From NCBI RefSeq assembly GCF_017348835.2, contig NZ_CP071375.1: 64,000 nucleotides of DNA. One strand, given 5' to 3'. Position numbers: made by a program. Position 1 is the first letter of the stretch. Each line of letters begins with the position of its first letter. Positions 18,001 through 21,000 of this stretch are shown here, in pieces. This DNA is from Escherichia coli (GTDB lineage Bacteria > Pseudomonadota > Gammaproteobacteria > Enterobacterales > Enterobacteriaceae).

Positions 18001-21000
18001 CTTCCCGTAGCTAAGAGCCGTAAACAGGATCGCAATCAATGCGAACGCATAGGCTGTCGGCACATGACCATCCGTGAGGCCTGAAACGATACCAAAAGTA
18101 TCAAACAGCGTCATCGGCTGCATATAGGCAAGACCCATCATTACAACCGGAACTAACGTAAGCGTTTTACGCAATTCCACGCGAGAGGTGTTTGGAGTAA
18201 CGTTATGCGACATGGTCATTCTCCTTTACGGTGATAACCGTCGCGTAAGCAAAAAATTGCCCCATTTTTTTGGATTCCTCAGCGACAACAACTGTCGATT
18301 TTTAGTAAATATCTATCCGGTACGAAGCCCGGCCTCTTGGTATGAATGATTGGTTTGAAGCAAAAAATAACCGACGCTGATGAAACGTCGGTTTTTAGTC
18401 ATTTTTTGACAGCGGCGCATTGTGCCTAAATGGGGGGGAAATGACAAGAGAATGAGAGGCTTGTCATAATAATTTTTCTTTAAATGGCTGATTTTCCGTC
18501 ATCAGATTTTGCATAAACACCGGCGATCGCACTATTTGCTAAAATTTCATCCCGCCACCAGCCGCTGGCAAGCCCTGCGGTCTGTTCATTCCAGCCAATC
18601 CAGACGGGTTCAAAGAGAGTTTGGGCGACCACTTTCTTCTCGATTAACGCGCCACTATCGAGAAAACGTTGCGCCAGATAACGGGGTAAATAGCCGCAGC
18701 CGAGGCCGCTAATTTGCAGCTCCAGCTTGGTTTTAAAATCGAAAACGGTAATGGCTTCTTGTTCGTCGAGAAGTTGTGAGGCCGTAGAAGCGCCGGCCTG
18801 CGCAGTGTCCCCCACCACAATCGCCCGATATCGTTTAATGATACGACGGTTTAACGGTTCTTCTTCCTGGGCTAACGGATGATGAGGCGCGACCGCAAAG
18901 ACTTGTTCCAGATCGCCCAACCGCGAGAAACCAAACTCACTGGAAGATGGTGGCTCATGCATCGCGCCAACAATAATATCCGCTCGCCCCTGAGTCAGGG
19001 CATCCCAGGAACCACCGAGTACGCCATTGATAAACTTCAGGCGCGTCACGCTATGATGTTGATAAAAAGCTTCAATCAGTGGCGCAAGCAGAGAAAAAGG
19101 AAACGTGTCGTCCACGCCAATCACCAGCTCGTTTTCCCAGCCTTCATGCAGTTTGATCGCCTGCTTTTCCAGTTCTCGCACGGTATGCAGAACTTCCCGC
19201 CCCTTCTCTAATAACATTTTTCCGGTACGGGTGAATTTAGCGCGGTGACCGCTACGATCAAGCAATTGAATATTAAGGTCGCTTTCCAGCTTGTGAACGG
19301 TGTAACTCAGAGCGAACGGCGTCTTGTAGAGTTTGGCCGACGCCGCCGCAAAACTGCCTTCTTTTTCTAAGGCATCGAGGATCATCAACACATCCAGCAG
19401 TGGTTTCATACACGCCCCCTTGCAGTGCATGCGGCGTCCTGCTGGCGTGATCGTTTACTCCAGCGGCATTACCAGCGGATCGGGATACTGGTATTCAAAC
19501 CCCAGTTCATTACAAATCCGACTGCCATCAATAATCTTACCTTTGCCGCTGTCCAGACTATTTCTGAACTGCGGAGGTTCCAGCCCCAGTAAACGGGCCA
19601 TCTGCGGATAGAAAACATTACGCGCAGGGTGAGCTGGCGCACATATATTATAGATGTGTCCGCCTTTAGGTGCCTGTAACAACAGAGTGATAGCGCCAAT
19701 AACATCTTCTAAATGGACTAAATTAACACCATGTTCACCATCAGGCGCGGTTTTTCCGGCAAAGAAGCGTCCGGGATGACGTCCCGGTCCGACCAGGCCC
19801 GCAAGACGCAGAATATCGACCGAAGTACCGGGTAAATTGTGCAGCCAGTCTTCAAGTTCTTCTAATACTCGTCCACTGTTGGTTACCGGATTACGCGGGG
19901 TAGTTTCTTTCACCGTGCCTTGCGCGTCGCCATAGACAGATGTTGAGCTGGTGAAAATAATGCGGGGAATACGATGGGCCAGCGCGCTATCTACTAACTC
20001 TTGTACCGCTTGTAAATAGAACTCATCGCCGGGGCCGCTACGACGGGCCGGAAGCGTAATGACCAGCGCATCGGCATCCATCAGGGCATCCAGATCGTCA
20101 GAATCGCAAACTAACTCAGGCTCCATGCGAAGCAGATAGCTATCAATGCCACTCATTCGGGCCGCTTCGACACCATCTTGTGTGGTTTTACTCCCGGTGA
20201 CTTGCCAGCCTCGCGCTGAAAGTGACATCGCCAGCGGCATGCCTAACCACCCTAACCCGACAATTGCGACCTTTTTCATCCGTTATCTCCTGATACACCT
20301 TAGATCTATAAGGCTACGCTAGCGTATCAAAACTGACAATTCATTCTATGAATGAAATCGAAACTGTTAGCAAATATACAATTGCCTGATGCGCTCCGCT
20401 TATCAGCCCTACAAAAACATCAATATATTGAATTTAGGCAACATTTGTAGACCAGATAAGGCATTCACGCCGCATCCGGCAGGAACAAAGCCCACTTTAG
20501 TTACAGAACACAATGTTCTTGAGGGTTTTAAAGACATATTTTCACGATTACTTTTCTAACGTAGTCACTCCAGGCCCCCACCTTTCCCCGCTCATTCATT
20601 AAACAAATCCATTGCCATAAAATATATAAAAAAGCCCTTGCTTTCTAACGTGAAAGTGGTTTAGGTTAAAAGACATCAGTTAAATAAACATTCACAGAGA
20701 CGTTTATGACACGCGTTCAATTTAAACACCACCATCATCACCATCATCCTGACTAGTCTTTCAGGCGATGTGTGCTGGAAGACATTCAGATCTTCCAGTG
20801 GTGCATGAACGCATGAGAAAGCCCCCGGAAGATCACCTTCCGGGGGCTTTTTTATTGCGCGGTTGATAACGGTTCAGACAGGTTTAAAGAGGAATAAGAA
20901 AATGACAGACAACACTCGTTTACGCATAGCTATGCAGAAATCCGGCCGTTTAAGTGATGACTCACGTGAATTGCTGGCGCGCTGTGGCATTAAAATCAAT

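Follow-up and report, generated by a model that had tools for sequence, protein, structure and literature searches.

The attenuator of the histidine operon in a 64-kb stretch of an Escherichia coli genome

We have studied a stretch of 64,000 nucleotides of an Escherichia coli genome (contig NZ_CP071375.1), which will be called the window. The region 20706-20854 is almost certainly the ribosome-mediated transcription attenuator of the hisLGDCBHAFI operon. It is the E. coli hisL attenuator itself, an ordinary copy of an element which is already fully described, and we have found nothing unusual in it. The in silico basis for this assignment is the set of its individual elements, its identity with strain K-12, the energetics and mutual exclusivity of its pairings, its conservation in related species and the operon which lies downstream.

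We will start with its identity. In a scan of the whole window the Rfam family RF00514 (His_leader) matches positions 20732-20855 of the + strand with 131.6 bits, against a gathering score of 49; the match spans the full model (positions 1-126 of 126; E = 1.4e-21). Alignment with K-12 MG1655 gives 100% identity over 20706-20897, a span which begins at the hisL ATG and takes in the terminator. A segment of 351 bases around the leader is found in 5423 of the 5426 complete E. coli genomes, and in RefSeq this stretch carries the annotations 'hisL: his operon leader peptide', 'His leader region' and 'hisG'. Together with the presence of hisGDCBHAFIE downstream, these data bear out an earlier note on this DNA, which had called the region a canonical, textbook his attenuation leader. 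The hisL region of K-12 (b2018; RF00514) has the same peptide, segments A to F, pause site, terminator, promoter hexamers and downstream operon. In the homologous part only three single-base changes separate the two, and none of them touches the structured part. At 20682, in the 5' untranslated leader (+8), the window has A and K-12 has G; at 20702, 4 nt before the hisL ATG, the window has G and K-12 has T; at 20898, between the hisG Shine-Dalgarno sequence and its ATG, the window has G and K-12 has C. Upstream of about 20574 the DNA diverges: K-12 has yefM-yoeB between yeeZ and hisL, and they are absent from the window.

Other families of leaders are not represented. The leader region has no Rfam match to the T-box at any threshold, and Thr_leader (22.8 bits) and Phe_leader (21.5 bits) stay well under their threshold of 55; both matches are driven by the terminator hairpin. 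We have also rejected all the sub-threshold Rfam matches at 20760-20912 (RcsR1, Spot_42, the Thr and Phe leaders, miRNA models), which are far below their thresholds and all overlap the terminator hairpin. The leaders trpL, thrL, leuL, pheL and ilvL follow the same logic: they have a short ORF rich in cognate codons and a pause hairpin, their antiterminator and terminator exclude each other, and a U run is present. They differ from his in their regulatory codons and in the number of alternative helices; his has six segments, five pairings and seven consecutive codons.

The coding elements of the leader are as follows:

20706-20756, + strand: hisL leader peptide ORF, 16 codons followed by a TAG stop codon, with translation MTRVQFKHHHHHHHPD.
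20727-20747, + strand: seven consecutive His codons, the regulatory codons which sense the supply of His-tRNA(His), identified by sequence reading and run statistics.

The ORF had to be read directly from the sequence, because it falls below the length floor of the mechanical ORF list. It starts with the ATG at 20706 and its stop codon is found at 20754-20756. The His codons are, in order, CAC CAC CAT CAT CAC CAT CAT, so that the run of seven His codons in a leader peptide, as described in the earlier note, is indeed there. An exact (CAY)7 run occurs only once in the 64-kb window, and in dinucleotide-preserving shuffles of the window a run with up to two mismatches is found about 0.02 times on average.

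The leader is directly followed, on the same strand, by the genes which it regulates:

20902-27935, + strand: regulated structural genes, from hisG to hisIE, recognized as ORFs, all eight of them above the curated NCBIfam cut-offs.
20902-21801, + strand: hisG (NCBIfam).
21807-23111, + strand: hisD (NCBIfam).
23108-24178, + strand: hisC (NCBIfam).
24175-25245, + strand: hisB (NCBIfam).
25245-25835, + strand: hisH (NCBIfam).
25832-26572, + strand: hisA (NCBIfam).
26554-27330, + strand: hisF (NCBIfam).
27324-27935, + strand: hisIE (NCBIfam).
19455-20279, opposite strand: yeeZ, the upstream neighbour, which reads away from the leader (ORF list and annotation).

The gene order hisG-D-C-B-H-A-F-IE is that of annotated E. 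coli.

The promoter and the extent of the leader RNA were placed with the help of published numbering:

20638-20667, + strand: probable hisL promoter, with a -35-like hexamer TTGCTT at 20638-20643, an 18-nt spacer and a -10-like hexamer TAGGTT at 20662-20667.
20675-20854, + strand: his leader RNA of 180 nt, which begins at +1 and ends with the attenuator; the +1 position and the length are taken from the numbering of PMC10989985.

Both hexamers are identical to those of K-12 and were placed relative to the published +1; we take them to be those of the his promoter. A generic scan for promoters and terminators in 20280-21000 did not report this promoter, because each hexamer has only three of the six consensus bases. 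The same scan did not report the terminator either, because extension of its stem through G-U and A-U pairs takes in the whole U run and leaves only two T in the next 8 bases. The weak hexamers and the stem-extension rule thus account for both misses, and we have dropped the silence of the scan as proof of absence.

The +1 position is fixed by four sites which were reported in 2023 in the his leader (PMC10989985) and named rDnaA boxes, at +46-54, +48-56, +126-134 and +187-195. Only with +1 at 20675 are all four reproduced, at 20720-28, 20722-30, 20800-08 and 20861-69. The same work gives a length of 180 nt for the leader RNA, so its 3' end falls at 20854. The limits 20706 and 20854 given for the region in the earlier note are therefore accurate to the base: the first is the ATG, the last is the 3' end of the published RNA. 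According to PMC10989985, ppGpp acts on the -10 hexamer and the discriminator of the his promoter.

The leader RNA is strongly structured. Folding of 20700-20860, which was the check proposed in the earlier note, gives -68.4 kcal/mol, against -38.0 +/- 3.9 kcal/mol in 200 shuffles (z = -7.9), none of which folds as well. The fold shows the termination conformation with its three hairpins A:B, C:D and E:F. All five classical pairings were found, and their segments overlap:

20739-20774, + strand: A:B hairpin, 20739-20752 with 20761-20774, 12 bp, -12.2 kcal/mol; helix 1 of the Rfam consensus.
20748-20765, + strand: his pause hairpin, the top of A:B, 20748-20752 with 20761-20765, 5 bp and an 8-nt loop; it is the published pause hairpin.
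20776-20777, + strand: predicted RNA polymerase pause site, with the RNA 3' end at U20776, 11 nt after the pause hairpin.
20756-20783, + strand: B:C pairing, 20756-20766 with 20772-20783, 11 bp, -12.1 kcal/mol; it forms with a ribosome on segment A.
20775-20798, + strand: C:D hairpin, 20775-20782 with 20791-20798, 8-9 bp, about -12.9 kcal/mol; it holds D away from E and is Rfam helix 2.
20789-20834, + strand: D:E antiterminator, 20789-20802 with 20821-20834, 12 bp, -16.7 kcal/mol including an inner hairpin; it occupies the 5' arm of the terminator.
20818-20853, + strand: E:F intrinsic terminator (the attenuator), a 14-bp stem 20818-31/20837-50 with loop AUCAC at 20832-36 and a U run at 20848-53; Rfam helix 3.

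The alternative hairpins which the earlier note had placed after the peptide are thus found explicitly, as A:B, B:C, C:D and D:E. The loop of the pause hairpin contains the hisL stop codon. We take U20776 to be the his pause base. The inner hairpin of D:E (20804-07/20812-15) is poorly conserved (84%). The terminator is as strong as had been claimed: nine of the 14 pairs in its stem are G-C, the loop has 5 nt, six U follow and its energy is -26.9 kcal/mol. It sits 48 nt before the hisG ATG. Its form agrees with the published his terminator, which has a 14-bp stem, a 5-nt loop and a run of U (PMC10989985). The dependence of the his pause on its hairpin and the consensus of the pause, G-10 / Y-1 / G+1, are described in PMC9291695; G20767, U20776 and G20777 fit this consensus.

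The behaviour of the switch was modelled by folding growing transcripts stepwise, with different ribosome footprints masked. Equilibrium folding of the full 171-nt transcript was discarded as uninformative: it gives the terminator under every ribosome mask. The switch is therefore kinetic, and minimum-energy folding cannot prove it. In the nascent transcript without a mask A:B forms first and then C:D; E stays free of D until F is made, and then E:F forms. With a mask for a stalled ribosome (20706-20755) B:C pairs once segment C has been transcribed, and B:C + D:E is the most stable fold (-27.5 kcal/mol) of the transcript ending at 20834, in which E is sequestered. In this model, masking of the His codons flips the best nascent fold from A:B + C:D to B:C + D:E. 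The segment from B to E folds by itself as B:C + D:E at -28.8 kcal/mol (z = -2.9; four of 200 shuffles are as good). With the ribosome at the stop codon and the transcript ending at 20834, D:E has a narrow advantage over C:D in the minimum-energy fold; termination under His excess should therefore rely on the order of folding and on the release of the ribosome.

The following sequence of events may be proposed. Transcription would begin some 31 nt before hisL. RNA polymerase would transcribe A:B and pause at U20776 behind the pause hairpin, which would give time for a ribosome to load on hisL. With charged tRNA(His) in good supply, the ribosome would cross the seven His codons up to the stop codon and then depart; pairings of the A:B/C:D type would be present, and E would be free to pair with the emerging F. 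The 14-bp G+C-rich hairpin and its U run would then end transcription at about 20854, leaving the 180-nt leader RNA. Under a shortage of charged tRNA(His) the ribosome would stall on the His codons and cover segment A. The pairings B:C and D:E would then form, the terminator would be blocked and the polymerase would continue into hisG. It is from the literature that we infer the pausing, the stalling and the response to histidine. The 100% identity with the experimentally studied K-12 element suggests that read-through would rise in this strain under limitation of histidine or charged tRNA(His).

Conservation was studied with a DNA pattern for His7-Pro-Asp, which gave 120 stretches from a collection of species-representative genomes, 74 of them with a short ORF. 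The comparison set contains 51 leaders of the ...VQFKHHHHHHHPD type, each distinct and full-length. They represent more than 20 enterobacterial genera: Escherichia, Salmonella, Citrobacter, Enterobacter, Kluyvera, Kosakonia, Leclercia, Lelliottia, Atlantibacter, Mangrovibacter, Siccibacter, Trabulsiella, Pluralibacter, Raoultella and others. Pairing is kept in 98.6% of the cells for the terminator form and in 97.6% for the antiterminator form, against 37-56% when the partners are slid by 1-3 columns. For individual helices it is kept in 100% of the cells in B:C and in C:D, and in 99.3% in D:E. Past the stop codon the mean entropy is 0.11-0.15 in paired columns and 0.56 in unpaired ones (Mann-Whitney p = 7e-5). 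Most of the variation falls in the loops of C:D and of the terminator, in the spacer between D and E, in codons 2-3 of the peptide and at the synonymous positions of the His codons. The sole frequent change in a stem is A20779 to G, in 16 of the 51 leaders; this base pairs in both C:D (G-U) and B:C (U-G). Covariation was not detected: among 51-52 leaders a single pair has both sides changed, as expected from shuffles. The reason is that the stems are invariant, the His7-Pro-Asp pattern having biased the sample to close relatives; the comparative support is thus kept pairing, not compensatory change.

Salmonella enterica his is the system in which the model of alternative pairings A to F and the his pause were worked out. 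Its attenuator has the same peptide MTRVQFKHHHHHHHPD and all the stems, and the two leaders from this genus in our sample (L040 and L094) have 96-97% ungapped identity with the present one over 157 nt. In the leader of subsp. arizonae (L040) A20779 is replaced by G, which gives a G-U pair in C:D, and the last His codon is the synonymous CAC. In both leaders the loop reads AUCAU and the tail is an unbroken U8, whereas here we find AUCAC and U6AUU.

The pattern also matched DNA from outside the enterobacteria. Three such cases, two from Bacteroidia (L046 and L063, with MHKHHHHHHHPD... and MHIHHHHHHHPD...) and one from Ignatzschineria (L069), have no Rfam match. L046 lies in CCACCACC-rich DNA, and over about 3 kb downstream of it the + strand has no ORF of 150 aa or more. 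Near L069 the opposite strand has a single ORF of at least 100 aa, presumably one for ribosomal protein L21, to judge by its N-terminus; the next + strand ORFs are unlike his enzymes. We have discarded these three as his leaders, as well as about 45 other matches in unrelated phyla: most likely they are chance matches or antisense matches to glycine codons.

It could be argued that the His codons belong to an ORF which has appeared by chance beside the ordinary terminator of a neighbouring gene, since an ORF of this length escapes the ORF lists and the generic scan gave no promoter. However fewer than 0.02 (CAY)7 runs are expected per window. Since the neighbouring gene yeeZ, on the opposite strand, is read away from the leader, it needs no terminator here and the hairpin cannot be its own. 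Furthermore the ORF, the structures and their place upstream of hisG are kept in more than 20 genera, and the Rfam score is far above its threshold. The probability of such a coincidence is practically nil, and it is excluded by statistics, gene orientation and conservation. The 180-nt RNA which is left after termination might in addition act in trans as a small RNA, as it is a discrete, stable and highly structured transcript, or else the 16-residue HisL peptide might have a function of its own, a reading favoured by the invariance of VQFKHHHHHHHPD across most of the genera sampled. However the conservation of the C-terminal codons of the peptide is explained by their membership of segment A and of the pause hairpin, and its residues 2-3 vary freely (T/S/N/K/I/V and R/S). 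No other Rfam sRNA family reaches its threshold here. We consider a role of this kind, for either the RNA or the peptide, highly improbable.

A different proposal is that attenuation takes place mainly or additionally through the binding of DnaA to the rDnaA boxes of the leader, which would be a DnaA-dependent riboswitch (PMC10989985). The four boxes are present in the window at exactly the published positions, the structured leader is identical to that of K-12, and the proposal comes with RNA immunoprecipitation and reporter data (PMC10989985). Yet each box has two mismatches to TTWTNCACA, and at this level of mismatch the motif is common: there are 1303 matches in 64 kb against 1230 +/- 36 in shuffles, that is one per 49 bases against one per 52. 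The leader region of 221 nt has six such sites, where 4.2-4.5 are expected by chance. With boxes at chance density the sequence neither backs nor rules out the proposal. Its authors themselves write that DnaA 'might bind' and speak of a 'possible example' (PMC10989985). The ribosome-dependent model covers every conserved element without DnaA, and we think it unlikely that DnaA contributes. More generally, a second layer beyond ribosome-mediated attenuation could consist of DnaA on the leader RNA, of the 180-nt RNA acting in trans, or of a set-point shifted by the lineage-specific T-to-G change at 20702 through the frequency of hisL translation; our findings support none of them, and we judge it very unlikely that there is such a layer. 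Ribosome-mediated attenuation stays as our reading of this region.

The case is of some methodological value. Simple consensus scans missed both a weak ppGpp-dependent promoter, that of his, and a terminator of great strength, the U run of which may be counted as part of the stem. A kinetic switch is invisible to minimum-energy folding of the full transcript; one has to fold the nascent RNA step by step, under a mask for the ribosome footprint. The presence of the published rDnaA boxes at chance density is a small caution on the DnaA proposal. Above all, the his leader is useful as a positive control: a textbook regulatory element has been recognized, and bounded to the base, from raw sequence.

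The his control region of the window differs from that of E. coli K-12 MG1655 by three single bases, none of which lies within the attenuator structures:

20682, single-base difference from K-12, in the 5' untranslated leader
20702, single-base difference from K-12, 4 nt upstream of the hisL ATG
20898, single-base difference from K-12, in the interval between the hisG Shine-Dalgarno sequence and its ATG

The whole segment 20560–20910 is found with at least 99% identity in only 181 of 5423 genomes, in part because its left edge is divergent.

The intergenic space between yeeZ and hisL has a length of 426 bp (20280–20705). 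In K-12 this space contains the yefM-yoeB toxin-antitoxin pair, which is absent from it in the window; homology with K-12 starts again only from about 20574. Among the 5426 complete genomes of E. coli, no more than 1196 (22%) have at least 80% of the segment 20280–20580, and its first 77 bases are all that most of the remaining genomes share with the window. It appears that a toxin-antitoxin cassette adjoining the his promoter is polymorphic by presence and absence. The same space probably contains a dispersed repeat, in positions 20366–20486: nearly all of it (20366–20482) matches a second locus of another E. coli genome (H15) with 82% identity. It includes an inverted repeat (20399–20415 and 20444–20460), and a REP-like stretch, GCCGCATCCGGCA, gives a naRNA4 match in positions 20450–20486 which is below threshold (19.9 bits vs 59.5).

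Elsewhere in the window several other matches to Rfam families have been found:

18360–18434, minus strand, STnc240, an enterobacterial sRNA (68.2 bits, threshold 55)
51143–51181, minus strand, JUMPstart element (59.2 bits)
56529–56599, 56625–56695 and 56721–56791, plus strand, three tandem copies of naRNA4, a REP-derived, nucleoid-associated RNA (65–73 bits)
61182–61231, minus strand, algC RNA motif (77.3 bits)

The STnc240 match is placed with plaP/yoeI on one side and yeeY on the other; this family also adjoins the his leader locus in Trabulsiella (L122). The three naRNA4 copies look like a cluster of REP elements, which extends over 56529–56791 on the plus strand. If the window resembles the matching strain here, wzzB, ugd, gnd and an O-antigen gene cluster would lie downstream of hisIE, on the minus strand.

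Besides hisL, there is a single near-match to a run of His codons in the window, CGCCACCATCGTCACCACCAT, in positions 8140–8160 of the plus strand. It has two mismatches to (CAY)7; translated in frame, it would give R H H R H H H. Outside enterobacteria, our search of species-representative genomes with the DNA pattern for His7-Pro-Asp gave leader-like short ORFs in two Bacteroidia, L046 and L063, and in Ignatzschineria, L069 (MHKHHHHHHHPDHDNCLGKQN, MHIHHHHHHHPDRDNFQEKLY and MHEGIHFRHHHHHHHPDRQRG). None of the three has any match in the Rfam scan, and in L046 and L069 no downstream ORF of the plus strand resembles a his gene. In these two loci the His run is found in DNA of the type CCACCACC, whose opposite strand can be read as a series of glycine codons. 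All three are most likely not his leaders; for L063, the inspection consists of the Rfam scan.

Among the relatives of hisL retrieved with the same pattern, the mechanically defined ORF is sometimes longer, due to an in-frame ATG 9–12 codons upstream (MNKHSSRIYMTRVQFK..., MHKHSTRIYMTRVQFK..., MPSMHKHSLEFFMTRVQFK...). This is the case for L010, L020, L022, L033, L043, L060, L077, L085, L086, L096 and L106, which belong to Enterobacter, Lelliottia and one unclassified metagenome bin. The His run itself also varies. Trabulsiella odontotermitis TbOT1.10 (L122) has ten consecutive His codons in hisL (MSVQFKHHHHHHHHHHPD), whereas there are seven in L116, a different strain of T. odontotermitis. The locus with the longer run is:

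about 1196–1340 of L122, minus strand, his leader

Even with ten His codons, its score for the Rfam family His_leader is still 131.2 bits. Evidently an expansion of the His run by three codons is tolerated, while the structure of the leader is kept.
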